Origin: a phage
Sequence record: PZ172995.1
Reading direction: 5' to 3' (one strand)
DNA: 64,000 nucleotides
The notes under the pieces are model-generated. The model was not told the origin of the DNA, did not search any database, and saw only the letters and a list, made by a program, of their open reading frames with translations. How positions within the stretch are numbered: position 1 is the first letter of the stretch; every line of letters begins with the position of its first letter. The position numbers and the translations under genes were made by a program. This document shows positions 11,381 through 40,637 of the stretch, one piece after another.

Positions 11381-11457
11381 CTCTGTTTAGCTCAGCTTGG
11401 TAGAGCGTTCCGTTTGGGGCGGTAAGGCCGGAGGTTCAAGTCCTCCAACAGAGACCA
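11381..11457 (+). tRNA. tRNA-Pro (TGG)
   Basis: Hand-folded cloverleaf: acceptor CTCTGTT/AACAGAG, anticodon loop TTTGGGG, T-arm GGAGG-TTCAAGT-CCTCC, CCA encoded. Confidence 0.75.
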
Positions 11458-11464
11458 AATTAAT

Positions 11465-11542
11465 GTTCCAGTAGACAAAACGGTAAAGTCACCACTCTTT
11501 CAAAGTGGATATTTGAGGGTTCAAATCCCTTCTGGAACGCCA
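11465..11542 (+). tRNA. tRNA-Glu (TTC)
   Basis: Acceptor GTTCCAG/CTGGAAC, anticodon stem CCACT/AGTGG with loop CTTTCAA, T-loop TTCAAAT, CCA encoded. Confidence 0.75.
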
Positions 11543-11547
11543 GTTTT

Positions 11548-11623
11548 GACAGAAGACCAATTACAGCAAACTTAATCTACTCATCTGACACGAAATCGGA
11601 CAAAGAAGATATTTGGTCTGGTC
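11548..11623 (+). ncRNA. conserved hairpin element, copy 1 (basal stem CAGAAGACC / GGTCTGG, loop with CAGCAA)
   Basis: GACAGAAGACCA pairs with TGGTCTGGTC around a loop of about 50 nt; same stem in three further copies. Confidence 0.5.
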
Positions 11624-11632
11624 ATTAAGAAT

Positions 11633-11709
11633 TGCGGGTATAGAGAAAGGGCGTCTCACATGTCTCATTAGCATGGTATCGGCAGGTTCGACTCCTGCAC
11701 CCGCCTCCA
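11633..11709 (+). tRNA. tRNA-Met (CAT), irregular acceptor stem
   Basis: D-stem GAGA/TCTC, anticodon stem CATGT/GCATG with loop CTCATTA, T-arm GCAGG-TTCGACT-CCTGC; acceptor pairing imperfect. Confidence 0.55.
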
Positions 11710-11714
11710 ATTTT

Positions 11715-11778
11715 GCAGAAGACCGTATGCAGCAACAAACTACTTTTTTTGCGGATAAAAGAAAAAACACGGTCTGGC
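11715..11778 (+). ncRNA. conserved hairpin element, copy 2
   Basis: GCAGAAGACCG ... CAGCAA ... CGGTCTGGC. Confidence 0.5.
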
Positions 11779-11788
11779 AATATATTAA

Positions 11789-11865
11789 GGTTAGGAAGCA
11801 CATAAGGTATGTGCGGTCGCCTGTTAAGCGAATGGCACAGGGTTCGAATCCCTGACTAACCGCCA
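11789..11865 (+). tRNA. tRNA-Asn (GTT)
   Basis: D-stem GCAC/GTGC, anticodon loop CTGTTAA, T-arm CAGGG-TTCGAAT-CCCTG, CCA encoded. Confidence 0.7.
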
Positions 11866-11874
11866 AATTTAAAT

Positions 11875-11962
11875 GTGTCGTTATCCCGTAGATGGTAGCG
11901 GTGGGGACTGTAAATCCCTTGTCATTGAGACTCGGTAGGTTCGACTCCTACACGGCACACCA
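11875..11962 (+). tRNA. tRNA-Tyr (GTA), long variable arm
   Basis: Acceptor GTGTCGT/ACGGCAC, anticodon loop CTGTAAA, long variable arm, T-arm GTAGG-TTCGACT-CCTAC, CCA encoded. Confidence 0.7.
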
Positions 11963-11968
11963 AATAAA

Positions 11969-12046
11969 GGTTATGTAGTTTAATCTGGTTAAAATACTCC
12001 CCTGTCACGGGAGATGATGAGGGTTCAAATCCCTTCGTAACCGCCA
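11969..12046 (+). tRNA. tRNA-Asp (GTC)
   Basis: Anticodon stem CTCCC/GGGAG with loop CTGTCAC, T-arm GAGGG-TTCAAAT-CCCTT, CCA encoded. Confidence 0.8.
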
Positions 12047-12129
12047 AATTATAATAAGTATTTCAAAATGATGTTTGAGAGGGCTATTTAGCCCCTCCCT
12101 TAAAGAGTTCTTACGAGTATTCTTTAAAG

Positions 12130-12212
12130 GAGCAGAAGACCAAATTCAGCAAGTACGTATGATATTTTCAAGCCAATTTAATTTTGAAAAAATTTAAAAC
12201 TTGGTCTGGCTC
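12130..12212 (+). ncRNA. conserved hairpin element, copy 3
   Basis: GAGCAGAAGACCAA pairs with TTGGTCTGGCTC; loop contains CAGCAA. Confidence 0.5.
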
Positions 12213-12221
12213 AACAAATTT

Positions 12222-12357
12222 ACAGAAGACCGTTTACAGCAAAACTTAAACAATCTATTTCTCCGGTAAAGAAAAGGCGAAGGTTCGATTCCTTCACTCG
12301 GCAGATGTCGAGTTGGTGTAATGGTAGCACTTAAGATGACAAACAACGGTCTGGTAA
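12222..12357 (+). ncRNA. conserved hairpin element, copy 4, enclosing a tRNA-like module (T-arm hairpin, acceptor-like hairpin, D-arm-like hairpin); candidate Y-RNA-like RNA
   Basis: Basal stem ACAGAAGACCGTT / AACGGTCTGGTA; inside: GAAGG-TTCGATT-CCTTC (12279-12295), ACTCGGC-AGAT-GTCGAGT (12296-12313), GTGT-AATGGTA-GCAC (12316-12330). Confidence 0.45.
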
Positions 12358-12503
12358 TTATCTTTGTAGGTGAGCTATTAAGCTTACTTGTGAGTATGCG
12401 ACCACAAAGGGTGAAAGGGCAAATTCTAGATTTAAACCCAACAAGGCACATCGCTACAGACCTTAAGCAAGTCTGGGTAGCTTATCTACAAAGATAATTT
12501 AAT

Positions 12504-12579
12504 GGAAGTGTAGCAGAATGGTGATGCGGCAGACTTTTAATCTGACAGGCGATGGGTTCGAATCCCTCCACTTCTACCA
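12504..12579 (+). tRNA. tRNA-Lys (TTT)
   Basis: Acceptor GGAAGTG/CACTTCT, anticodon loop CTTTTAA, T-loop TTCGAAT, CCA encoded; paralogous to the Lys(CTT) tRNA at 13820. Confidence 0.7.
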
Positions 12580-12583
12580 ATAT

Positions 12584-12660
12584 GGTTCAGTCGCAGATAA
12601 GGTAATGCAGGGGTCTCATAAGCCCTATGAATGTGGGTTCGATTCCCATCTGAACCTCCA
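12584..12660 (+). tRNA. tRNA with CAT anticodon (Met or lysidine-Ile)
   Basis: Acceptor GGTTCAG/CTGAACC, anticodon loop CTCATAA, T-arm GTGGG-TTCGATT-CCCAT, CCA encoded. Confidence 0.7.
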
Positions 12661-12661
12661 A

Positions 12662-12737
12662 GCTGGTATAGTTAAGAAGGTTATAACACTCCCCTGATAA
12701 GGGAATATCGGTGGTTCGATTCCACCTACCAGTACCA
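12662..12737 (+). tRNA. tRNA-Ile (GAT)
   Basis: D-stem GTTA/TAAC, anticodon loop CTGATAA, T-arm GGTGG-TTCGATT-CCACC, CCA encoded. Confidence 0.75.
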
Positions 12738-12752
12738 ATTTCAATAAAGTTG

Positions 12753-12781
12753 TTGACATTGATATGTGACTATTTTATAGT
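12753..12781 (+). promoter_or_regulatory. sigma70-like promoter (TTGACA, 17 nt, TATAGT) inside the tRNA array
   Basis: TTGACA 12753-12758, TATAGT 12776-12781; downstream about 300 nt has no tRNA or ORF. Confidence 0.55.
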
Positions 12782-12832
12782 AACTGAAAATGATTCAGCA
12801 TATGTATAATTCAAACACCAATACATGAGCGT

Positions 12833-12904
12833 TAGACGTAACACAATGTGGGGAAATTTGTTGTACATATTCTGAATAGTTTTCGTTGCGTAGCGTCTAT
12901 TTTG
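12833..12904 (+). terminator. putative structured element ending in a T-run (possible sRNA 3' end)
   Basis: TAGACG ... CGTCTA stem enclosing about 55 nt, followed by TTTTGC. Confidence 0.3.
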
Positions 12905-13074
12905 CAAATTTAAAATAAATGCAAACGACAATGTTTTTCTGGCAGTAGCTTGATAGGCTAAACACCAGTGAGGTCTTCCAATCCCTCATCAAAGAATTTG
13001 GCGTACTAGCCCACGGTATGATTAATAAGGTGGGCATCTTTAAGGGCTTTCTAAGAGAGTCTTTAAAGATTAAT

Positions 13075-13151
13075 GCACCCTTAGTTCAATTGGATAGAGC
13101 AACGGTCTTCTAAATCGTTAGTTACAGGTTCGAATCCTGTAGGGTGTGCCA
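13075..13151 (+). tRNA. tRNA-Arg (TCT)
   Basis: Acceptor GCACCCT/AGGGTGT, anticodon loop CTTCTAA, T-arm ACAGG-TTCGAAT-CCTGT, CCA encoded. Confidence 0.75.
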
Positions 13152-13293
13152 AATAGTTAGCAGATTGCTTAGACGACCTTATCGGGTCTCCGCGTAAGGA
13201 GGTGGTCTGTATCTCATGTTTTCCAGAACATGTAAATAATCTGAGAAGGGGCTTTACAGTGTTGCGAAAATACGGTAAGCTTCGAATTATAGT

Positions 13294-13376
13294 GTGGGAC
13301 GATGTTAAGACTCTAAGGCATGAGCAACGGCCTCCAAAACCGTTTCAAAGGGGTTCAACTCCTCCGTCCCATGCCA
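13294..13376 (+). tRNA. tRNA-Trp (CCA)-like, atypical length and D-region
   Basis: Acceptor GTGGGAC/GTCCCAT, anticodon loop CTCCAAA, T-loop TTCAACT, CCA encoded; about 7 nt longer than canonical. Confidence 0.45.
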
Positions 13377-13389
13377 AAGTCTTATTAGG

Positions 13390-13477
13390 GGTAGGTAGCG
13401 GCTAATGGCAGCCAAACAGTCTTGAAAACTGTTGCAACTGTAGAGATACGGTGAGGGTTCGACTCCTTTACTTACCA
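13390..13477 (+). tRNA. tRNA-Ser (TGA), long variable arm
   Basis: Acceptor GGTAGGT/ACTTACC, anticodon stem ACAGT/ACTGT with loop CTTGAAA, variable arm about 20 nt, T-loop TTCGACT. Confidence 0.7.
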
Positions 13478-13634
13478 CCTAATAAGATTTTACACCGTCC
13501 ATGCTTGCTCGCATTTTCGGTTTATCCCTCGTGTATTGTCGTACACACTGATAAAGCACCTAGTAGGTGTCACGGAGAAGAGATAATATCAAGCTCTCCA
13601 AAGGTTCTAGTCACCGGATTAAACAAGACTATGC

Positions 13635-13656
13635 AAAGACCAATTTAGGTCTTTTT
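13635..13656 (+). terminator. putative Rho-independent terminator
   Basis: AAAGACC-AATTTA-GGTCTTT followed by TTT. Confidence 0.45.
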
Positions 13657-13735
13657 AGAGGGCTTCTAAGGTTATTACAGCTTGTTGTGGAACCTTGTTG
13701 CTTAGGTTCTTAGAAGTTCTCTAAAAAGATTTAAT

Positions 13736-13812
13736 GCACCTATAGCCCAACTGGTAGAGGCAGCAGACTTAGAATCTGCTCAGTGTGAGTTCGAATCTCT
13801 CTAGGTGTACCA
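13736..13812 (+). tRNA. tRNA with TAG anticodon (Leu by anticodon), short variable arm
   Basis: Acceptor GCACCTA/TAGGTGT, anticodon stem GCAGA/TCTGC with loop CTTAGAA, T-loop TTCGAAT, A73, CCA encoded. Confidence 0.65.
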
Positions 13813-13819
13813 AATTAAT

Positions 13820-13895
13820 GCAGGTGTAGCAAAATGGTTATGCGGCTGACTCTTAATCAGTAAGACGATGGGTTCAATTCCCTCCACCTGTACCA
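13820..13895 (+). tRNA. tRNA-Lys (CTT)
   Basis: Acceptor GCAGGTG/CACCTGT, anticodon loop CTCTTAA, T-loop TTCAATT, CCA encoded. Confidence 0.7.
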
Positions 13896-13901
13896 AACAT
13901 T

Positions 13902-13977
13902 GGGGTCATAGTTTATATGGTTAAAATTCGAGTTTTGCAAACTTGGGAACTGAGTTCAATTCTCAGTGACTCCACCA
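13902..13977 (+). tRNA. tRNA-Ala (TGC)
   Basis: Acceptor GGGGTCA/TGACTCC, anticodon loop TTTGCAA, T-arm CTGAG-TTCAATT-CTCAG, CCA encoded. Confidence 0.7.
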
Positions 13978-13983
13978 ATTAGT

Positions 13984-14058
13984 GCATCCATAGTTTAAAC
14001 GGGAAAATTACAGTCTTCCAAACTGAGGTTGAGGGTTCGATTCCCTCTGGATGCTCCA
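13984..14058 (+). tRNA. tRNA-Gly (TCC)
   Basis: Acceptor GCATCCA/TGGATGC, anticodon loop CTTCCAA, T-loop TTCGATT, CCA encoded. Confidence 0.75.
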
Positions 14059-14065
14059 AATTAAT

Positions 14066-14141
14066 GCTCCTATCGTATAATTGGCTATTACGGTTGCCTT
14101 GTAAGTAACTTATCAGGGTTCGAATCCTTGTGGGAGCACCA
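14066..14141 (+). tRNA. tRNA-Thr (TGT)
   Basis: Acceptor GCTCCTA/TGGGAGC, anticodon loop CTTGTAA, T-arm CAGGG-TTCGAAT-CCTTG, CCA encoded. Confidence 0.7.
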
Positions 14142-14238
14142 ATTTAGAGGTCAAGTGAAAGACCGCTTTGAGTCAACTGAAGACCGTAACAAATCCCACG
14201 GAGTTGAGTTAGCGGCACAACTTCAGACCTCTTTCCAC

Positions 14239-14313
14239 ACTCGCTTAGTTTATATGGTAAAACATCACCCTTACAAGATGAAGAAAAAGGTTCAAGTCCT
14301 TTAGTGAGTACCA
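14239..14313 (+). tRNA. tRNA-Val (TAC)
   Basis: D-stem GTTT/AAAC, anticodon loop CTTACAA, T-arm AAAGG-TTCAAGT-CCTTT, CCA encoded. Confidence 0.7.
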
Positions 14314-14314
14314 T

Positions 14315-14392
14315 GTTCCAGTATCCCAATTGGCAGAGGATGCAAGCTCAAACCTTGCACTAGTGACGGTTCGAATCCGTCTTGGAACACCA
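14315..14392 (+). tRNA. tRNA with CAA anticodon (Leu by anticodon), short variable arm
   Basis: Acceptor GTTCCAG/TTGGAAC, anticodon stem GCAAG/CTTGC with loop CTCAAAC, T-arm GACGG-TTCGAAT-CCGTC, A73, CCA encoded. Confidence 0.65.
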
Positions 14393-14397
14393 ATTTT

Positions 14398-14473
14398 GCA
14401 GGATTAGTTCAAATGGATAGAGCAACAGTCTACGAAGCTGTTAATAGGGGTTCGAGTCCCTTATCCTGCGCCA
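14398..14473 (+). tRNA. tRNA-Arg (ACG)
   Basis: Acceptor GCAGGAT/ATCCTGC, anticodon loop CTACGAA, T-loop TTCGAGT, CCA encoded. Confidence 0.75.
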
Positions 14474-14491
14474 GATAAGTAAGAGTGATTT

Positions 14492-14734
14492 ATGCAAACA
14501 TTAATCGTCGTTGAACATGAAAATTCCAATAGCATTGAGTTTGTAAGGGTTCCCACTATAGATACCCACATTTTCTTGAAAGTAGGCTGGGAATGTGACC
14601 CAATAAGAGTAGAAAAATTTATTGGTCATTACTTTGGTGGAAGACAACTTAAAAGTGTTAATTTTGAGACAATGTTACCAGAAAACTCAGAAACAAATAA
14701 TAATGTTTACCTCCTTACAAGGATTAGACAATGA
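14492..14734 (+). CDS. hypothetical protein encoded inside the tRNA array
   Basis: ORF with RBS; ATGA overlap with the next gene. Confidence 0.5.
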   Translation: MQTLIVVEHENSNSIEFVRVPTIDTHIFLKVGWECDPIRVEKFIGHYFGGRQLKSVNFETMLPENSETNNNVYLLTRIRQ

Positions 14735-15288
14735 GATATTTGAAGTATGTTTCATGGATTTTCTTAGCTTTGCTAGAGCCATTTGCAGCAATCTTAGCAG
14801 TCATCTTAGCACCTTTTGTAGTTCTATTCTACAGTGAGAAGAGAGGACACTTACCTTTCGGCTTCAGATGGATGGAAACATATGATAACCCAATTGATGG
14901 TGATAAAGGTCATGTCGAACGATGGGCTAAGATTAGAAAGATTGGTAAGCTTGGTATCTATATGCAGAGAGTTGGTTGGCTCTGGAGAAACAAAGCTTAT
15001 AACTTCTCTTACCATGTGTTAGGAAGAGATGTAAAAGATGTTACTAAGTGGAAAGGTAATATCAATGTAAGTTCTAACCCTGAAGATAATCAGACAGGTT
15101 ATCTCCTAATGTGGAACAGTAATGCTTGGGGATTATTCGCTTTTATCCCATCAATTAAACTCTTTGGTAAGCAATTCTACTGGAGAATTTATGTTGGATG
15201 GAAACTTAAAAGTGTTGTTCCAAAAGAAAGAGCATTCTCAAGGGAAAGAGTTATGTTGGCATTCTTTATTCATCCACTGAGAAAGTAA
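14731..15288 (+). CDS. hypothetical Trp-rich membrane protein encoded inside the tRNA array
   Basis: N-terminal hydrophobic helix WIFLALLEPFAAILAVILAPFVVLF in the 185-aa translation. Confidence 0.6.
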   Translation: MRYLKYVSWIFLALLEPFAAILAVILAPFVVLFYSEKRGHLPFGFRWMETYDNPIDGDKGHVERWAKIRKIGKLGIYMQRVGWLWRNKAYNFSYHVLGRDVKDVTKWKGNINVSSNPEDNQTGYLLMWNSNAWGLFAFIPSIKLFGKQFYWRIYVGWKLKSVVPKERAFSRERVMLAFFIHPLRK

Positions 15289-15296
15289 AGATTTAA

Positions 15297-15372
15297 AGGG
15301 GATTAGTTTACAAGGTTAAAACCTCGGTCTTTGAAATCGAAGAAGTTGGTTCAATTCCAACATCCCCCGCCA
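15297..15372 (+). tRNA. tRNA-Gln (TTG)
   Basis: Anticodon stem TCGGT/ATCGA with loop CTTTGAA, T-arm GTTGG-TTCAATT-CCAAC, CCA encoded. Confidence 0.7.
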
Positions 15373-15374
15373 AT

Positions 15375-15453
15375 GCTCCATTACTCCAATTGGCAGAGAG
15401 GCCAGACTTAAAATCTGTGTTATGTATCGGTTCGAATCCGATATGGAGTACCA
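15375..15453 (+). tRNA. tRNA with TAA anticodon (Leu by anticodon), short variable arm
   Basis: Acceptor GCTCCAT/ATGGAGT, anticodon loop CTTAAAA, T-arm ATCGG-TTCGAAT-CCGAT, A73, CCA encoded. Confidence 0.65.
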
Positions 15454-15458
15454 AATTT

Positions 15459-15534
15459 AGCGGTATAGCATAACTGGCAATGCAGCAGTCTCTGAAGCTG
15501 TCTTATTAAGGTTCAAATCCTTATGCCGCTGCCA
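15459..15534 (+). tRNA. tRNA-Gln (CTG)
   Basis: D-stem GCAT/ATGC, anticodon loop CTCTGAA, T-arm TAAGG-TTCAAAT-CCTTA, CCA encoded. Confidence 0.7.
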
Positions 15535-15565
15535 CTTCTAAGGATTCTTACGAGAGTCCTTAAAT

Positions 15566-15641
15566 GTGGCCTTATCATAAATGGTAATGACCCATGCTGT
15601 GAACATGGTCTATACGGGTTCAAATCCCGTAGGTCACCCCA
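15566..15641 (+). tRNA. tRNA-His (GTG)
   Basis: D-stem TCAT/ATGA, anticodon stem CCATG/CATGG with loop CTGTGAA, T-arm ACGGG-TTCAAAT-CCCGT, CCA encoded. Confidence 0.75.
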
Positions 15642-15646
15642 ATTTA

Positions 15647-15723
15647 TAGTCCAAGTAGCTTATATGGTTAAAGCGCGTGTCTGAAAAACATGAGAAGAGG
15701 GTTCAAATCCCACTGGACTACCA
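15647..15723 (+). tRNA. tRNA-Phe (GAA)
   Basis: Acceptor TAGTCCA/TGGACTA, anticodon stem CGTGT/ACATG with loop CTGAAAA, T-loop TTCAAAT; linker lengths slightly irregular. Confidence 0.65.
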
Positions 15724-15739
15724 ATTTCAAAGGTGCTTA

Positions 15740-16474
15740 ATGAAAGAGATGACAGGACAAGGTAAGGAGATTTTTAATCTCTTAAAAACCGGTAGAGGGT
15801 TTTCTAATCCCCTTATTACTGGTGCAGCAGTTCTCGGTGGAACCGTAGCTGCCTCTACATCACTTGTAAGCTCTATTAGCTCTGTAACAGACCCTACAAT
15901 AAAGGATAAACTTGTTGCCGCTGGACTTACAACAGTTCTGCTTAACAGCTTTACAACGAGTCTGACAAGCACTACATCCACCACTAAGACATTGACAGAT
16001 TACGGTCAAAAATCAATTGATGAGTTTTCATCACGTATGCAGGTAGCAAAAGGATATTCCAATGTTATGGGTGCAGCAGGAGAGCAAGTTGGTTGTACAC
16101 CATTTAGTGGTATTATGGGTGTTGCTACAGAATATGGTCAAAAAGCTATTGACACGATTAACAACACGTTAGACAGTGTTAACGGCGTGTTAAGTGACTT
16201 ACAGGATGCTATTGATAAAGGTCTTGATACTGTTTCTGATTTAGCTAACCAAGCTGTTAGCAAGATTAATGAAGGTATCTCGAAGATTACAGCTTATGCA
16301 GATGAAGTTGTGCAGATGATTGAAGAAGAAGCTGCCCTTATTGCAGAGTACCTTAAAACGAATATCAATGGGTTCTTAGCAGGTATTTTACCAGACTGGT
16401 TTGATGATGCTTGTAAAACTGGTGTGATTGACACTATTGCAACACCAGAAATGAAGAACGCATTACAGAAATAA
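15740..16474 (+). CDS. hypothetical Ser/Thr-rich protein encoded inside the tRNA array
   Basis: Track start 15677 lies inside tRNA-Phe; ATG at 15740 has AAAGGTG RBS; low-complexity S/T region then a helical C-terminal half. Confidence 0.6.
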   Translation: MKEMTGQGKEIFNLLKTGRGFSNPLITGAAVLGGTVAASTSLVSSISSVTDPTIKDKLVAAGLTTVLLNSFTTSLTSTTSTTKTLTDYGQKSIDEFSSRMQVAKGYSNVMGAAGEQVGCTPFSGIMGVATEYGQKAIDTINNTLDSVNGVLSDLQDAIDKGLDTVSDLANQAVSKINEGISKITAYADEVVQMIEEEAALIAEYLKTNINGFLAGILPDWFDDACKTGVIDTIATPEMKNALQK

Positions 16475-16475
16475 T

Positions 16476-16568
16476 GGAAGATTAACCCTAAAAGGTAAGG
16501 GAGCAGTTTGCTAAACTGCCAGTAGCTGAGAAATCGGTGTACCAGTTCAAGTCTGGTATCTTCCCCCA
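16476..16568 (+). tRNA. tRNA-Ser (GCT), long variable arm
   Basis: Acceptor GGAAGAT/ATCTTCC, anticodon stem GCAGT/ACTGC with loop TTGCTAA, variable arm about 21 nt, T-arm ACCAG-TTCAAGT-CTGGT, CCA encoded. Confidence 0.75.
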
Positions 16569-16572
16569 ATTT

Positions 16573-16648
16573 GAATCCGTGACAGAAATGGCTATGTGCC
16601 TGTCTGCAAAACAGGTTTATAAGGGTTCGAGTCCCTTCGGATTCTCCA
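16573..16648 (+). tRNA. tRNA-Cys (GCA)
   Basis: Acceptor GAATCCG/CGGATTC, anticodon stem CCTGT/ACAGG with loop CTGCAAA, T-arm AAGGG-TTCGAGT-CCCTT, CCA encoded. Confidence 0.8.
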
Positions 16649-28350: not shown

Positions 28351-33737
<5,387 letters not shown>

Positions 33738-35209: not shown

Positions 35210-36064
35210 ATGTTTGAAAAGATTGATAGTGTTTATTACAAAACACTTGATGAACGAACTGTAACACAGTTTAAAGATAAGTTTATCTACACAAGCATCT
35301 TGAAAGCAATCACTGATGAGTTACAAACACTAGAGGATGTTTGCTGGCAGATGCACACAGAGAGAAATATCAGGACATCAGTAGGTCAACAACTTGATAA
35401 TATTGGCTCACTGATTAAAGTTCCTAGACCTTTAGGTGCTGATGATGAAACATATAGAGCTATGCTTTATATCCAAATCTTCCTAAGACGCTCTGACACT
35501 ACTCCAACATTCTTGCAAAAAGCAATTATGACACTGTATGGTGCAACTTTCTCTCAGATTTTTGAGCATATTACTCCTAAGACTGGTGGTATCGTTATCC
35601 GTATCAACACTAGGAAAAGCGTTCTAGATGCTGCATATACACTGTCAAAGATTTCTGCAACAACTACTGGTTCTGCTGTTATCTTAAGAGATGTTACTTT
35701 AAAAGGAACTGCTTGGACACCTGTAGAGGTTGCTGATTCAGCACTTGCCATTGTTGATGATAAAGAGAACTGGTTTGTAACTGATGCTAACAGAGGTCTT
35801 GTCACAAATAACACTGGTGGCTCTCTGGAGTCCAACCTAGTAGGAAGTCTTGCAGATGCTGGTGTTATTGATGGTTACTTTAAGGTTGACAGAACAGCAA
35901 ACTCACAGAGTGATGATTACATGACTGTAGATAGGTCTAATAATAGTGGATATTTCATCGTTGGTAAAGAAGCTGTTGCAGGTGGTGCATACGGAATCAT
36001 GGCTGAGGTTGCACAAATTGTCAAAGGCAGAAAAGATAAATCACAACAAGAAGGAAATTCTTAA
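35210..36064 (+). CDS. putative baseplate or tail-fibre attachment protein
   Basis: 284 aa; synteny. Confidence 0.4.
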
Positions 36065-36366
36065 TGGCAGTTTTAAATTGGTCTACAAATGAAGTGGATA
36101 CTGATGGTAATCAGTTAAAAGTTTTACCACCACCGGAAATTCAAGAGACAGGTCTTTTAAAGGGTGAGCCTATGGGTAGACAGTGGTTCAACTATATTAT
36201 CAACTACCTGCTGAATAAAGTAAACGGCACTGTTGGTGAAGTTCGCTCATATGCAACTGAGCAACCAGATTTAGTGGCTAATGGCTGGAATCTAATTAAG
36301 TCTGAGACAGGGACTGCATCAACAAGCACAAGAAACCTTTACACATATGAATATGTAGGAGCTTAA
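36064..36366 (+). CDS. hypothetical tail protein
   Basis: ORF, overlapping start/stop. Confidence 0.45.
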
Positions 36367-36368
36367 TA

Positions 36369-37544
36369 ATGGCAGTAGGTGAAATTCAAATTAGTGCCTT
36401 GCCACAAGCGGCCTTACCAATTGATTTGAGTGATATCTTCCATCTTAAGCAAGGTGTTGAGGATAAAAGATGTACGCTTGAACAGTTGTTAGCACCTCAC
36501 GCATCTTTGAGGAATAATCCTCATGGTGTAACTAAATCACAAGTAGGTCTTGATAATGTTATTAACTCTCTTCAATTAGTTGCAGCTAATAACTTGTCAG
36601 ATATTGTAAATGTTGCTGAGGCAAGAGCAAATCTACAAATTATGTCGTCAGAGGAAGTGAATAACTTAATTCAGCAACATATTGACGACAAAAGTAACCC
36701 ACACAACACAACGAAAGCACAGGTTGGTTTAAGTAATGTTCAGAACTGGACAACATCCAACCTGTACAATGAAGATGCTGATAAATATGCTACCGCGAGA
36801 GCAGTGAATAATCTATACAAAGCTATCCAAGCATCATATCCAGTGGGGACTATTCATCTGTCTGTTAACTCTGCTAACCCATCCACTTACTTGCTTTGTG
36901 GAGGTACTTGGGAGTTGGTTTCTAAAGGTAGGGCGCTTGTTGGTTATGATACAGAAGCTAGACCTGTTGGTTCAACGTTCGGTTCTCAGACTGTAGCATT
37001 AACAAATAATAATTTACCAGCACACACCCACTCTATCTATTTAACAGGTGGTGGTCACACACACTCTGCAAGCGTATCTATCTCTAGTTTTGATTATGGT
37101 TCAAAAAGTACATCAACTTTTGATTACGGTACAAAAACGACTAATAGTGCTGGTGCTCACACTCACACGTTTAGCGGCACGACAAGTAATGATGGTAACC
37201 ATAACCATAGAGTACCACTGAGAGGTAATGATAGAAGTGGGGGGGATGCTATTACTGCATCTGCTTATGCTGGGGTTAATAATAATACGTATACTGATTT
37301 AGCAGGTGCTCACACCCATAGCTTCTCAGGCACAACTGCATCATCTGGTGCTCATAACCATACTGTTGCAATTGGTGCTCATAGCCACACTGTTAATATT
37401 GGTTCACACAGTCATACGGGCACTGTTACTGTCTCTAGCTCTGAACATACACACTCAGGAACATCTGGTTCTGTTGGTGGTGGTCAAGCTTTCAGTGTTG
37501 AGCAGCCATCTTTTGTCGTGTATGTATGGCAGAGAACAGCTTAA
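36369..37544 (+). CDS. tail fibre protein with His-rich HxH repeat tip
   Basis: C-terminal AHTHS, GHTHS, AHTHTF, NHNH, AHSHTV, SHSHTG repeats; terminal motif shared with the next gene. Confidence 0.7.
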   Translation: MAVGEIQISALPQAALPIDLSDIFHLKQGVEDKRCTLEQLLAPHASLRNNPHGVTKSQVGLDNVINSLQLVAANNLSDIVNVAEARANLQIMSSEEVNNLIQQHIDDKSNPHNTTKAQVGLSNVQNWTTSNLYNEDADKYATARAVNNLYKAIQASYPVGTIHLSVNSANPSTYLLCGGTWELVSKGRALVGYDTEARPVGSTFGSQTVALTNNNLPAHTHSIYLTGGGHTHSASVSISSFDYGSKSTSTFDYGTKTTNSAGAHTHTFSGTTSNDGNHNHRVPLRGNDRSGGDAITASAYAGVNNNTYTDLAGAHTHSFSGTTASSGAHNHTVAIGAHSHTVNIGSHSHTGTVTVSSSEHTHSGTSGSVGGGQAFSVEQPSFVVYVWQRTA

Positions 37545-37590
37545 TTTCTTTACAGGGGCTTTGTAGCCCCTTTTAAGAGGAAAATTCATA

Positions 37591-39957
37591 ATGGCAGATT
37601 ACAAATTGAGTCAGTTAAACTCAATCGACACAATTCGTTCAGAAGACCTATTGCATATCAGAGTTAAGAAAAGACCTGAAATGTTGGGTGACGAAGACCG
37701 TAGAATGACCTATCAAGACTTCTTAGCTTCCTTCAAACTAGAAAGGTTTGTTCAGATTGCTGGGAGTAATATGACTGGGGATTTAGGTATTGTCAAGCTA
37801 CTTTACGGTGGAAAGATTGTATTTGACCCTACAGGCTCTTCTGAGATTACTATTGGGGATGTTTTAAAGACTTTTAAACTTAATGCAAGTGGCCTTAAAC
37901 TCACTATTGCAGACTCTTCAAGGTCAGCAACTGTTTATCACACTCTGAATAAGCCAAGCCCTAATGAGCTTGGTATGAGAACTAATGAAGAGAATGATGC
38001 AAGATATGCAAGGCTTGCTGCAAATAACATCTTTACATCCCAACAGACTATCCAAGCAAATGGTGAAGGTATTAGGTTAAAAAACTCTTCTGAGAACTCA
38101 CCGTTGTATATCAGAGGTCAGGATAGTGCTGGTGAGAATAGATGGTATATCGGTAATGGTTCAGGGGGTGATAATGTTACTATCCGCAACCACAAGACAG
38201 ACTGTGAAGTTATTCTATCTAGTGTCGTGGCTATCAATAAAACATTAAGCATCACTGGTCAAGTCAAACCTTCAGATTTCTCTAACTTAGATGCTAGATA
38301 CTTCACTCAGACAGTTGCTAATCAGAGATTTGCACAGTTAGCTGGTAATAACACTTTTACAGGTGCTAATACATTTAGGACTATGAGTATTATCTCAAAT
38401 GCTGCTGCTATCACACTACAATGTGCATCAGCAAATGAATCCCTGTATCTACTTGCAAAAGATTATCAAGGTGGTAACTTATGGTATGTTGGTAAAGGTA
38501 GCTCAGGTGATGGTGTAACTATCTACAACTATACCACTAACACCTCTTTGGTCTTAGATGCTGCTGGAGTATCAGCAAATAAAAATGTCAGAATCACTGG
38601 TCAAGTTCAACCTTCTGATTGGGCTAATATTGACTCTAGATACATTCCAGCAGGAACTTTGAGTAACCTTGCTAAACTGAGTGATGTGAATACTTTTAGG
38701 TCTGCGCAAGTTATTAAACAGAATGGTCCAGTGTTGCAGCTAAGGAATACTATTCAGGACAGGGAGCTATATATCTCTGCTCATAATGCTGATGATGTTA
38801 GAAAGTGGTACATCGGTAACGGGGATGCTAACCCAGCAAGGCTTATTATCCACAACGACAGAACTGCAACTACGATTTATATGCAAGACGATTTCTTGCT
38901 GAATAAAACAGTTAGAATCACTGGTCAAGTCCAACCTTCAGATTTCTCTAACTTAGATGCTAGATATTATACGCAATCTGTAGCAAACTCTAGGTACATG
39001 CTTGCTGTCTCTACTGGTTCTGGTACAGAGGCTGGTGATGGTGATGGTATTGCTTGGAATGCTAGGACTGGTCTGTATAATGTTACAGGGAAATCTGGTT
39101 GTTCAACACAGCTAGTTTATCAAATGTTTATCGGTGGTGGCTCAACACCAACTGCACAGTTGAAGTTTAGCTACAGGAATGGTGGTGTCTGGTATAGGAC
39201 AGCAAGAGATGGCTATGGATTTGAGAATAGCTGGGCTAAAATCTATACAGACCAAGATAAGCCAACCCCTTCAGATATCGGTGCATACACTAAAGCTGAA
39301 ACTGACCAGAAGATTGCAGAAGCAATTAGTGACTCTACAGACCTGAATAAAATCTATCCAGTAGGTATTGTAACGTGGTTTAACAGTAATGTTAACCCTA
39401 ATACAGCACTTCCTGGTCTAACTTGGACGTACCTGAATAATGGTGTTGGCAGAACTATTAGGATTGCAGCAGCAAATGGTTCAGATGTTGCTACAACTGG
39501 TGGTTCAGACTCTGTAACGTTATCTGTTGGTAACTTACCTTCACACACACATAGTTTCTCTGCTACCACTTCATCATTTGATTATGGTACTAAGACTTCT
39601 AGCACAACTGGTAACCATAACCACAACAGAGGTAACATGGAAATTTCTGGTGTGGTTGGTTGGTTCAGAAGTGATAACAGTGCATTCTACACTGCGAGCG
39701 GTGCGTTTCAGATGGGTAGTTCTCAGGCTTCACATGGCTTCACAGGCTCTAACTTCACTTACGGTGCTGCTGCTGATTTCCACGCGTCAAGAACTTGGAC
39801 AGGTGTAACCAACACAACTGGCAACCACGCGCACACTGTTGGTATTGGTGCTCACAGCCACACAGTTAGCGGTAACACAGGTGGTACTGGTTCTGGTTCA
39901 GCATTTAGCGTCACTAACCAGTTCTACAAGTTAATGGCTTGGGTAAGGACTGCTTAA
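37591..39957 (+). CDS. long tail fibre protein with internal repeats and His-rich HxH repeat tip
   Basis: 788 aa; repeated ITGQVxPSD(F/W)SNLD(A/S)RY modules; C-terminal SHTHSF, NHNHN, NHAHTV, AHSHTV motifs. Confidence 0.75.
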   Translation: MADYKLSQLNSIDTIRSEDLLHIRVKKRPEMLGDEDRRMTYQDFLASFKLERFVQIAGSNMTGDLGIVKLLYGGKIVFDPTGSSEITIGDVLKTFKLNASGLKLTIADSSRSATVYHTLNKPSPNELGMRTNEENDARYARLAANNIFTSQQTIQANGEGIRLKNSSENSPLYIRGQDSAGENRWYIGNGSGGDNVTIRNHKTDCEVILSSVVAINKTLSITGQVKPSDFSNLDARYFTQTVANQRFAQLAGNNTFTGANTFRTMSIISNAAAITLQCASANESLYLLAKDYQGGNLWYVGKGSSGDGVTIYNYTTNTSLVLDAAGVSANKNVRITGQVQPSDWANIDSRYIPAGTLSNLAKLSDVNTFRSAQVIKQNGPVLQLRNTIQDRELYISAHNADDVRKWYIGNGDANPARLIIHNDRTATTIYMQDDFLLNKTVRITGQVQPSDFSNLDARYYTQSVANSRYMLAVSTGSGTEAGDGDGIAWNARTGLYNVTGKSGCSTQLVYQMFIGGGSTPTAQLKFSYRNGGVWYRTARDGYGFENSWAKIYTDQDKPTPSDIGAYTKAETDQKIAEAISDSTDLNKIYPVGIVTWFNSNVNPNTALPGLTWTYLNNGVGRTIRIAAANGSDVATTGGSDSVTLSVGNLPSHTHSFSATTSSFDYGTKTSSTTGNHNHNRGNMEISGVVGWFRSDNSAFYTASGAFQMGSSQASHGFTGSNFTYGAAADFHASRTWTGVTNTTGNHAHTVGIGAHSHTVSGNTGGTGSGSAFSVTNQFYKLMAWVRTA

Positions 39958-40036: not shown

Positions 40037-40234
40037 ATGCCTACAATCCTAGCAATTCTTCTAAAAAATCTAGGTAGCTTCTTCTGGAAACTCATTTTAT
40101 CCCTTCTAAGTGAATACATGATTGAGAAAGTGTTCTTTAAGCTTGCAAGATATCTTGCTAGTAAGACAGACACACCTATTGATGATGAGTTCGTAGATAA
40201 CTTAGAAAAAGCTTTTAAGGGGGAGAATAAATGA
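40037..40234 (+). CDS. hypothetical small protein with hydrophobic N-terminus
   Basis: 65 aa, ILAILLKNLGSFFWKLILSLL segment. Confidence 0.45.
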   Translation: MPTILAILLKNLGSFFWKLILSLLSEYMIEKVFFKLARYLASKTDTPIDDEFVDNLEKAFKGENK

Positions 40235-40602
40235 AGTGGCTAGAGGAAGCTTTTAAAAATAATATTGGTGCAATTGTAGTTGGTATTTTTAGTGTTATTG
40301 GGATGTATACCACGATGCAAGTTTCAAGTGGTAAACAAGAAGTGTCTATCACAACAAAATTACAGCAGCTAGATAATTATTCCAAAAGTAATTATTCAGC
40401 TATTCGTGATTTACAGTCTGATATGAGGCTGCTTCAGCTAGGGATGGAGAACCAGAAAGTCCAGTTAGAGAATGTTAAGGGTGAGAACGCAAAACTTACT
40501 AAGACTCTTGATAAATTCTCTGATAGTGTGAACAATCTGGCTCAATCAGTATCAGCCCTCCAAGCTATTACTGAAAAGAACACAAAGAATACTGAAAAGT
40601 AA
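40231..40602 (+). CDS. hypothetical membrane-anchored coiled-coil protein
   Basis: N-terminal TM IGAIVVGIFSVIGMY then heptad-like region. Confidence 0.5.
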   Translation: MKWLEEAFKNNIGAIVVGIFSVIGMYTTMQVSSGKQEVSITTKLQQLDNYSKSNYSAIRDLQSDMRLLQLGMENQKVQLENVKGENAKLTKTLDKFSDSVNNLAQSVSALQAITEKNTKNTEK

Positions 40603-40607
40603 AGTTT

Positions 40608-40637
40608 AAGGCTCCTTTTTACGGGAGCCTTTTTTGT
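40608..40637. terminator. bidirectional Rho-independent terminator between convergent late and replication blocks
   Basis: AGGCTCC-loop-GGAGCCT with T-runs on both strands. Confidence 0.75.

Follow-up and report, generated by a model that had tools for sequence, protein, structure and literature searches.

The window, a stretch of 64,000 nucleotides of phage DNA (sequence record PZ172995.1), carries two adjacent tail-fibre genes, both on the plus strand (Table 1). The first encodes a short tail fibre (TF1), the second a long tail fibre (TF2). The open reading frames have exactly the limits given in an earlier note made from the letters of the DNA, and the naming of both products as tail fibres there agrees with their PHROG tail-fibre families (2097 for TF1, E=3e-139; 4277 for TF2, 1325 bits) and with their orthology to the short and long tail fibres of phage Bas63.

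Genes and domains of the fibre locus

The fibre region is 99% identical to that of Escherichia phage HMD-P10, which places the window in Felixounavirus. It is matched by 236 phage records, nearly all of Felixounavirus type, from Escherichia or Salmonella. Gene order in the window is that of genes 21-31 of Bas63, baseplate wedge through thymidylate synthase. Bas63 (Escherichia phage JohannRWettstein, genome MZ501086) belongs to the same genus, and its cryo-EM study appeared in Sci Adv in 2025 (PMC12609058).

Upstream of TF1 are open reading frames of 489, 284 and 100 aa, placed as the Bas63 wedge 2, wedge 1 and LTF platform proteins. Chain S of PDB 9ndy, matched by the smallest of them, is the 'LTF platform protein (gp025)' of Bas63. 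From its sequence, we infer that the 100-aa protein is the baseplate attachment point of the long fibre. The neighbouring puncture apparatus (spike) protein matches a Bas63 chain in PDB 9ndy (E=1.7e-143). Two small genes 3' of TF2 are assigned to PHROG families of unknown function; one is labelled holin in HMD-P10. A scan within the TF1 and TF2 genes gave no promoter or terminator exceeding shuffle expectation. The sole terminator-like site of the scan is located at 40608-40631, 3' of the small genes downstream of TF2. A tblastn search of the window for the T4 assembly protein gp38 found no homologue (best E=0.79).

Table 1. Positions of the fibre genes, their domains and the platform gene in the window; residue limits are those of the encoded proteins.
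Feature	Residues	Position	Strand	Remarks
Long-tail-fibre platform protein	100 aa	36064..36366	+	phmmer vs PDB 9ndy_S, E=7e-59, full length; PHROG 4141
TF1, short tail fibre	391 aa	36369..37544	+	Orthologue of Bas63 gp26
TF1, N-terminal baseplate-binding region and helical shaft	1-145	36369..36803	+	Bas63 gp26 near-identical there
TF1, collar (T4 gp10 C-terminal / gp37 collar type)	~146-216	36804..37016	+	Gp10_C; approximate boundaries
TF1, predicted outgoing needle strand	~217-281	37017..37211	+	HxH at 219, 230, 264, 278
TF1, predicted head at chain turn	~282-313	37212..37307	+	Low conservation, T4 alignment
TF1, predicted returning needle strand	~314-365	37308..37463	+	HxH at 315, 329, 338, 347, 360
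TF1, Gly-rich linker and final strand ...GGGQAFSVEQPSFVVYVWQRTA	366-391	37464..37541	+	Aligned to T4 gp37 C-terminal strand
TF2, long tail fibre	788 aa	37591..39957	+	Orthologue of Bas63 gp27
TF2, three ~110-aa shaft repeats	146-473 (146-256, 257-365, 366-473)	38026..39009	+
TF2, gp37_C / phage Mu fibre S-like domain	~475-583	39013..39339	+	Pfam PF12604, E=6.2e-21
TF2, C-terminal tip	~586-788	39346..39954	+	Similar to TF1 (E=1e-16), T4 gp37 (BLASTP) and 2xgf

TF1 contains the motif NPHxxTKxQVGLxNV twice, at residues 50 and 110, in a region whose counterpart in Bas63 gp26 is the baseplate-binding domain (PMC12609058). Its collar matches Pfam PF21939 Gp10_C (68 bits against a 27-bit cut-off, E=2.1e-18), the gp10 structures 2fkk and 5hx2 and the gp37 tip 2xgf. 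The outgoing needle strand includes two copies of an FDYG(S/T)K repeat. The segment at the chain turn aligns with the stretch of T4 gp37 between HxH motifs 3 and 4. The last 26 residues are conserved in the short-fibre family (identity 0.79-0.86), and the R and A of R-x-A are invariant where the final strand is aligned with the C-terminal strand of T4 gp37.

The shaft repeats of TF2 are 39-43% identical pairwise, each closing with ITGQV(K/Q)PSD(F/W)(S/A)N(L/I)D(A/S)RY. The three units of about 110 aa that had been noticed by this motif were recovered by Pfam PF20744 gp37_trimer, which hits TF2 three times (E=8.5e-65, 215 bits against a 21.7-bit cut-off), and by an HMM made from the repeats, with which exactly three copies were found. 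The Bas63 counterparts are described as beta-helix repeat domains like the rod of T4 gp34 (PMC12609058). Deletions of repeat units occur in relatives. The domain that follows corresponds to tail fibre S of phage Mu (PDB 8ju3), residues 330-427 of which match TF2 477-576 (E=1e-21). It is internal in TF2 and is followed there by the gp37-type tip; the rest of the two proteins is without similarity. The tip consists of a collar (586-649), a short needle with HxH motifs at 652, 676, 746 and 755, an enlarged predicted head (~680-744) and a final strand ending in ...AFSVTNQFYKLMAWVRTA. The collar scores 23.3 bits with Gp10_C, under the 27-bit cut-off, and is aligned with the TF1 collar within the alignment of the two tips.

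End to end, TF1 is 74% identical to Bas63 gp26 (391 vs 382 aa) and TF2 69% identical to Bas63 gp27 (788 vs 784 aa). Since the N-terminal regions of both fibres are near-identical in the two phages, a Bas63-like baseplate-binding region, shaft repeats and gp37-type tip are to be expected in TF1 and TF2. Both Bas63 fibres have a collar, HxH needle, head, chain reversal and six-stranded needle of the T4 gp37 type (PMC12609058). Two baseplate-attached trimeric fibres were seen in the virion by cryo-EM for Bas63 (PMC12609058) and Sf14 (PMC11821841). Bas63 differs in the distal needle and head, with seven HxH motifs against nine in TF1 and six against four in TF2; TF1 256-330 and TF2 ~680-745 are without a clear Bas63 counterpart.

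HxH motifs and needle architecture

The clusters HTHS, NHNH and HSHT are present in both proteins, as the earlier note had it. TF1 has 24 histidines and nine HxH motifs. Shuffling this protein 20,000 times gave 1.4 motifs on average and never more than 8, below the observed count. For TF2, with four motifs, the average after shuffling was 0.26, and a count of 4 came up in 3 of 20,000 shuffles. The C-terminal regions have a strong bias to S, T, G and H, from which the pattern might have arisen as a compositional or low-complexity accident, without a specific role. Such an origin is almost inconceivable: the counts are matched by no shuffle for TF1 and by just 3 of 20,000 for TF2, and the histidines are kept position by position in the family and out to T4. 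It is this conservation that rules the accident out.

Among 72 short-fibre relatives, the HxH histidines of TF1 are conserved at 0.53-1.0 (14 of 18 at >=0.8). Those of the outgoing strand match the query at 0.96-1.0, except H264 (0.53) and H266 (0.79); those of the returning strand match at 0.68-1.0. All eight HxH histidines of TF2 are invariant (1.0) among 118 long-fibre relatives; the remaining histidines of that tip lack such conservation (0.29-0.33). Nine motifs are the commonest short-fibre state (57 of 74 clusters), and four are found in 92 of 120 long-fibre clusters. Bas63, the structural reference, has minority counts (7 and 6); most relatives, like the present phage, have 9 and 4.

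TF1 146-362 matches the crystal structure of the T4 gp37 tip (PDB 2xgf; E=3e-27), which was solved by Bartual et al. 2010, cited in PMC12609058. TF2 matches 2xgf by phmmer (E=5e-4) and full-length gp37 by BLASTP (E=2e-10). Identity is 48% between T4 gp37 893-1011 and TF1 242-362. When gp37, TF1 and TF2 are aligned together, each of the seven HxH motifs of T4 pairs with an HxH in TF1, and four of the seven pair with one in TF2. The outgoing motifs of TF1 correspond to T4 motifs 1-3 and the returning ones to motifs 4-7, with 230 and 360 as extras. In both TF1 and TF2, HxH motifs flank the head segment on either side.

The tips of TF1 and TF2 would share with T4 gp37 the collar, the needle with its HxH motifs, the head and the strand that runs back. 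The T4 head segment is of about the same length as that of TF1, and both proteins finish with R-x-A. The head of TF2 is about twice as long as that of T4, without detectable similarity to it. Against the seven HxH motifs of T4, TF1 has two extra and TF2 three fewer. The setting also differs: in T4, gp37 (1026 aa) makes up the distal half-fibre and is joined via gp34-36, whereas here the tip is carried on a fibre of 391 or 788 aa that would attach directly to the baseplate.

The same needle occurs outside this group. In lambda Stf and related E. coli prophage fibres (PF07484 Collar and PF03335 Phage_fiber) it is 56-57% identical to TF1 242-353, and lambda and lambdoid records are among the tblastn matches. 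In all, 570 phage records have the module. These lambda-type side fibres share only the needle module; their N-terminal parts and virion context (siphovirus) differ.

The di-histidine motifs of T4 coordinate Fe along the needle (PMC12609058). Since the HxH clusters of TF1 and TF2 are homologous to these iron-coordinating motifs, a metal-stabilised tip is the best reading of them that the sequences offer. TF1 and TF2 are very probably the short and long fibres of a Felixounavirus myophage, a Felix O1-like phage of E. coli, each with a metal-pinned tip of the T4 gp37 type.

By orthology with Bas63, each fibre would be a homotrimer whose N terminus anchors it at the baseplate, with the platform protein as the attachment of the long one. 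The tip would begin with a globular collar, from which a needle extends. Each chain is predicted to run outward, form a small head at the far end and run back again, so that the needle would be a six-stranded beta structure. The last strand (...W.RTA) would rejoin the collar. Each HxH, contributed by all three chains, would place six histidines around a metal (Fe in T4) on the threefold axis. By homology to T4, these sites would pin the needle together. Nine are predicted in TF1 and four in TF2, compared with seven in T4.

Iron may not be the metal bound (zinc is one candidate), or part of the nine predicted sites of TF1 may be empty, with the architecture holding in either case. The HxH site of the T4 short tail fibre gp12 holds zinc. 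The link to the T4 Fe sites is one of sequence homology only, motifs 230 and 360 of TF1 are without a T4 counterpart, and H264, H266 and H331 are less conserved (0.53-0.79). The authors of the Bas63 study, however, equate their motifs with the T4 Fe sites (PMC12609058), and nine motifs being the commonest state of the short-fibre family, the extra ones are arguably maintained by selection. A different metal or partial occupancy is therefore unlikely, though its probability is appreciable.

An AlphaFold2 monomer of full-length TF1 has a mean pLDDT of 63.9, best in the collar (75-90). It is helical over residues 37-156 at low to moderate confidence. Long strands flank the low-confidence segment 288-307 in a hairpin-like arrangement, with a pLDDT of 43-67 in the needle. 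Foldseek of this model against the PDB gave no match at E<=0.001 (best E=0.034). The top non-significant matches are phage collar and tail chains and the T4 gp10 collar (33-34% identity, probability 0.6). The long hairpins of pore-forming toxins, also among the matches, were rejected because an isolated hairpin resembles them by geometry alone. For the TF2 tip, the AlphaFold2 monomer (residues 556-788, from an alignment of 32 sequences) has a mean pLDDT of 43.8 and is unusable.

Origin of the shared C-terminal module

The similarity of the two final segments (...AFSVEQPSFVVYVWQRTA in TF1, ...AFSVTNQFYKLMAWVRTA in TF2), remarked on in the earlier note, is borne out by alignment of the tips. Over the last 25 residues the local alignment score is 56, compared with an average of 17 after shuffling (z=10.5), and none of 5000 shuffles scores as high. 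TF1 136-342 and TF2 562-759 are 32% identical in amino acids with 17% gaps (E=1e-16). At the DNA level, similarity is limited to 37 bp at 86% (37359-37395 vs 39832-39868), encoding the repetitive GAHSHTV.

The shared module had been taken to suggest domain swapping between the fibres. If the two genes had recently exchanged sequence in the present genome, by a swap or by gene conversion, this would account for modules that are homologous, for final strands that are similar and for the short DNA match. Such a recent event is, however, very improbable. The proteins are too divergent, at the identity and gap content given above, and the DNA match is confined to a stretch coding for a repeat. Each tip is far closer to its orthologue elsewhere than to its neighbour, and the two-fibre arrangement is kept throughout the genus and also in Sf14, a related ounavirus (PMC12609058, PMC11821841). 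Given so low an amino acid identity and a DNA match of no more than 37 bp, the tips of TF1 and TF2 are, as judged from their sequences, old paralogues with no recent swap within the genome. Swapping holds in another form: exchange of modules as cassettes between phages is evident from sequence comparison.

Receptor contact and significance

Direct contact with the receptor is made by the head in T4 (PMC12609058). The gp37 chain runs out along the needle, makes the head and returns (PMC12609058), and for this reason the head is placed in the middle of the module. The corresponding segments are variable. Conservation in the short-fibre family is lowest at TF1 residues 286-300 (identity 0.12), and Bas63 gp26 is unrelated in sequence at the head segment. 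Residues 676-735 of TF2 are among the least conserved of the long-fibre family (0.59-0.68, 118 relatives). By this analysis, the HxH motifs would sit in the needle shaft and not at the receptor-contacting end. Receptor contact is likely made by a His-poor hypervariable loop, TF1 ~282-313 and TF2 ~680-744, which would meet the host surface. Of the metal-stabilised receptor-binding tip proposed in the earlier note, the metal part is thus retained, at the level of homology to the T4 iron sites, whereas the HxH motifs and the last strand would not form the end that touches the receptor. The receptor is probably lipopolysaccharide, as it is elsewhere in the genus. With a different head on each fibre, the phage would have two binding specificities.

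Host recognition by the long fibre might instead depend mainly on a lateral domain, either the Mu S-like domain (475-583) or the beta-helix repeats, and not on the needle head. Relatives of 846-849 aa have no match to TF2 residues ~512-548 (~476-548 in some) and carry ~90-130 unrelated residues at that place; their HxH tip remains 83-95% identical. The variability of the beta-helix repeats equals that of the head and was noted as unexpected in PMC12609058; the authors of the Sf14 study suggest that receptor contacts of related fibres may be proximal to the tip (PMC11821841). Yet TF2 676-735 is variable too and wholly different from Bas63, and the T4 precedent is one of direct contact by the head. 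A mainly lateral recognition is accordingly judged unlikely, and it is not mutually exclusive with recognition by the head. The hypervariable head loop is preferred here as the contact.

A further proposal is that the number of HxH motifs is tuned together with the head cassette. In that case the ~65-residue head of TF2 would represent a new fold for receptor binding, carried by a minimal needle of four sites, and together with the replaceable Mu S-like domain it would provide two specificity modules exchangeable independently of each other. This is speculative and rather improbable.

HxH tips of the gp37 type are already known and have been published for Felixounavirus (PMC12609058); those described here are real but ordinary. 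Little is added to phage biology, the T4 tip having been known since 2010 and the two-fibre HxH needles of the genus since 2025. Felix O1-like phages are used for typing and biocontrol of Salmonella and E. coli. The mapped boundaries are of modest practical value as cut sites for host-range engineering of such phages: the heads (TF1 ~282-313, TF2 ~680-744), the replaceable segment of TF2 (~475-548) and the repeat-unit deletions of relatives.

The fibre locus and its neighbours

Escherichia phage HMD-P10 is 99% identical to the fibre region at DNA level. The region matches 236 phage records, nearly all Felix O1-like, with Escherichia and Salmonella as hosts. Gene order is that of genes 21–31 of Bas63 (Escherichia phage JohannRWettstein, MZ501086). 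The two fibre ORFs reported in the earlier note lie at exactly 36369..37544 (short tail fibre, TF1) and 37591..39957 (long tail fibre, TF2), at the end of the baseplate gene block. TF1 and TF2 align end to end with Bas63 gp26 (74% identity) and gp27 (69% identity), respectively.

Features of the fibre locus and of the tRNA gene block
Feature	Coordinates	Strand	Remarks
tRNA gene block	11381-16648	+	26 genes
Central baseplate spike protein	32696..33319	+	207 aa
Wedge subunit			139 aa; in baseplate block
Baseplate_J protein			489 aa; in baseplate block
Baseplate protein			284 aa; in baseplate block
LTF platform-type protein	36064..36366	+	100 aa; 5' of TF1
TF1	36369..37544	+	391-aa ORF
TF2	37591..39957	+	788-aa ORF; adjoins TF1
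Small gene 1 after TF2	40037..40234	+	PHROG 402, family label without function
Small gene 2 after TF2	40231..40602	+	PHROG 4038, family label without function; holin in HMD-P10 annotation
Terminator-like hairpin	40608-40631		After small genes

Two neighbours match chains of the Bas63 baseplate structure 9ndy: the 100-aa protein upstream of TF1 matches 'LTF platform protein (gp025)' (E=7e-59), and the spike matches 'puncture apparatus (gp021)' (E=1.7e-143). HTHH occurs at spike residues 188–191; the HxH formed by H188/H190 is the one at the tip of the spike that the Bas63 study takes to bind iron, probably (PMC12609058). The spike would be a third metal-binding HxH protein of one tail module, with TF1 and TF2.

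The two small genes overlap each other, and their sequences suggest membrane proteins. The hairpin sits where gene direction turns leftward; thymidylate synthase and dihydrofolate reductase genes follow on the opposite strand. No T4 gp38 homologue was found in the window; unlike T4, with its gp38 chaperone gene, the phage has no tail-fibre chaperone gene adjoining TF1 or TF2. Out-of-frame ORFs of 71–93 aa within the His/Thr/Ser-rich tip-coding DNA (37306..37566 (+), 39354..39569 (-), 39527..39808 (+)) are most likely by-products of repetitive codon content, not genes. The tRNA block includes 2 Met, 2 Lys, 2 Gln, 2 Arg, 2 Ser and 3 Leu genes; its 26 genes compare with the 22 reported for Felix O1 (PMC3185647).

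HxH motifs and the T4 gp37-type tip

HxH clusters, noted earlier in both fibres, exceed shuffle expectation. TF1 has nine, at residues 219, 230, 264, 278, 315, 329, 338, 347 and 360 (nine reached in 0/20,000 shuffles); TF2 has four, at 652, 676, 746 and 755 (four reached in 3/20,000). TF1 146–362 matches the T4 gp37 tip structure 2xgf (E=3e-27); for the TF1 collar the match is to the C-terminal domain of T4 gp10 (68 bits to Pfam Gp10_C). TF2 is matched more weakly (2xgf, E=5e-4; gp37 by BLASTP, E=2e-10) and scores under the Pfam cut-off for Gp10_C (23.3 bits); its tip nevertheless aligns with that of TF1. In a three-way alignment all seven T4 HxH motifs pair with TF1 motifs. Compared with T4, TF1 has two additional motifs, 230 on the outgoing and 360 on the returning strand, whereas TF2 retains two outgoing and two returning. 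The head segment spans ~65 residues in TF2 versus ~32–34 in T4 and TF1. A C-terminal hydrophobic strand and R-x-A are common to all three proteins; the similar fibre ends are explained by a final strand predicted to go back to the collar.

In the TF1 monomer model (mean pLDDT 63.9) the collar is predicted with confidence, and long strands lie either side of a low-confidence turn at 288–307, as for a hairpin-needle chain. Foldseek with this model gave no significant match. The TF2 tip monomer model was too poor to use (pLDDT 43.8).

Of the 18 histidines in TF1 HxH motifs, 14 agree in 0.8–1.0 of sequences across 72 full-length relatives of the short fibre; H264 (0.53), H331 (0.68) and H266 (0.79) are less conserved, and H329 stands at 0.88. 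Conservation is lowest at 286–300 (identity 0.12), after the outgoing HxH run and before the returning one. All eight TF2 HxH histidines are invariant in 118 long-fibre relatives; the two remaining histidines of the tip (715, 731) agree in only ~0.3. Variable long-fibre regions are 676–735 and parts of shaft repeats 1 and 3 (151–225, 376–435). Such conservation is consistent with a structural metal scaffold that is kept constant and bears a variable receptor-contact head. Nine HxH occur in 57/74 short-fibre clusters; long-fibre clusters have four in 92/120 and six in 27/120. In HxH number the window phage is therefore typical, and Bas63 is in the minority.

Paralogy, module exchange and shaft repeats

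The common C-terminal module proposed earlier is borne out by tip alignment: 32% identity over ~220 residues (E=1e-16), with z=10.5 for the last 25 residues, beyond all 5000 shuffles. The proposed swap between the two fibres is not: DNA similarity of the tips is confined to 37 bp at 86%, encoding a GAHSHTV-type motif, and at such protein identity the tips are, judged by sequence, old paralogues, with no recent exchange. Module exchange among phages is evident from sequence comparison. Bas63 gp26 is near-identical to TF1 until ~residue 255, then unrelated over the distal needle and head. A tblastn query with TF1 225–365 hits 570 phage records, which fall into separate identity classes (at least 90%, n=37; 60–90%, n=15; below 60%, n=518). 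Among the records are gp37 genes of T-even phages and side tail fibres of the lambda type. E. coli prophage fibres are 56–57% identical over TF1 242–353.

The TF2 shaft has, as claimed, three repeats of ~110 aa (146–256, 257–365, 366–473), 39–43% identical, each closing with ITGQVxPSD(F/W)xNxDxRY. Two 65-bp DNA repeats, 94% identical, lie at 38236-38300 and 38902-38966. They encode the conserved ends of repeats 1 and 3; a related stretch lies at 38578-38620. TF2 relatives of 680 aa (P0161, P0194) are without exactly one 108-aa unit, plausibly lost by recombination between the 65-bp repeats. In relatives of 846–849 aa, query ~512–548 (~476–548 in some) is unmatched and replaced by ~90–130 unrelated residues; the HxH tip (83–95% identity) and flanking shaft are conserved. 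Examples are P0169 and P0234 of Escherichia phage ECOH1. TF2 ~475–548 (~39013-39234) may be a second exchangeable specificity module.

NPHxxTKxQVGLxNV occurs twice in the TF1 N-terminal shaft (residues 50–64 and 110–124; 36369-36803) and 4–6 times in tandem in uncharacterised proteins of 590–682 aa (P0089, P0090, P0094, P0119). The unit therefore seems to be a shaft repeat with a wide distribution.

Published architecture and significance

Cryo-EM of Bas63 resolved a 430 Å short fibre (gp26) and a 630 Å long fibre (gp27), each holding the baseplate by its N-terminal domain and ending in a T4 gp37-like receptor-binding tip of collar, needle and head; the chain turns back at the head, giving a six-stranded needle (PMC12609058). 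HxH motifs, which in T4 bind Fe along the needle, number seven in T4 and the Bas63 short fibre and six in the Bas63 long fibre; receptor-binding tips and, unexpectedly, long-fibre beta-helix repeats vary across the genus (PMC12609058). The related ounavirus Sf14 also has two fibres (PMC11821841). Bas63 depends on LPS with an intact core; LPS is also the target of Felix O1 (PMC8594841).

The sequences themselves show the identity of the fibres, their orthology, the homology of collar, needle and head, the alignment of the HxH motifs and the way conservation is distributed. On the model of T4 and Bas63, TF1 and TF2 would be trimeric with a six-stranded needle. Each HxH triplet would hold one metal ion, predicting nine sites in TF1 and four in TF2; the metal would probably be iron. 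The head would contact the receptor, which, from the genus, would be LPS. Homology supports the metal stabilisation of the fibre tip envisaged in the earlier note; the note's placement of the receptor-binding part needs correcting. The observation overall is confirmed and its interpretation partly supported. Because the architecture is described for Bas63 (PMC12609058), the earlier note has rediscovered a feature known in T4 since 2010 and in the genus Felixounavirus since 2025.
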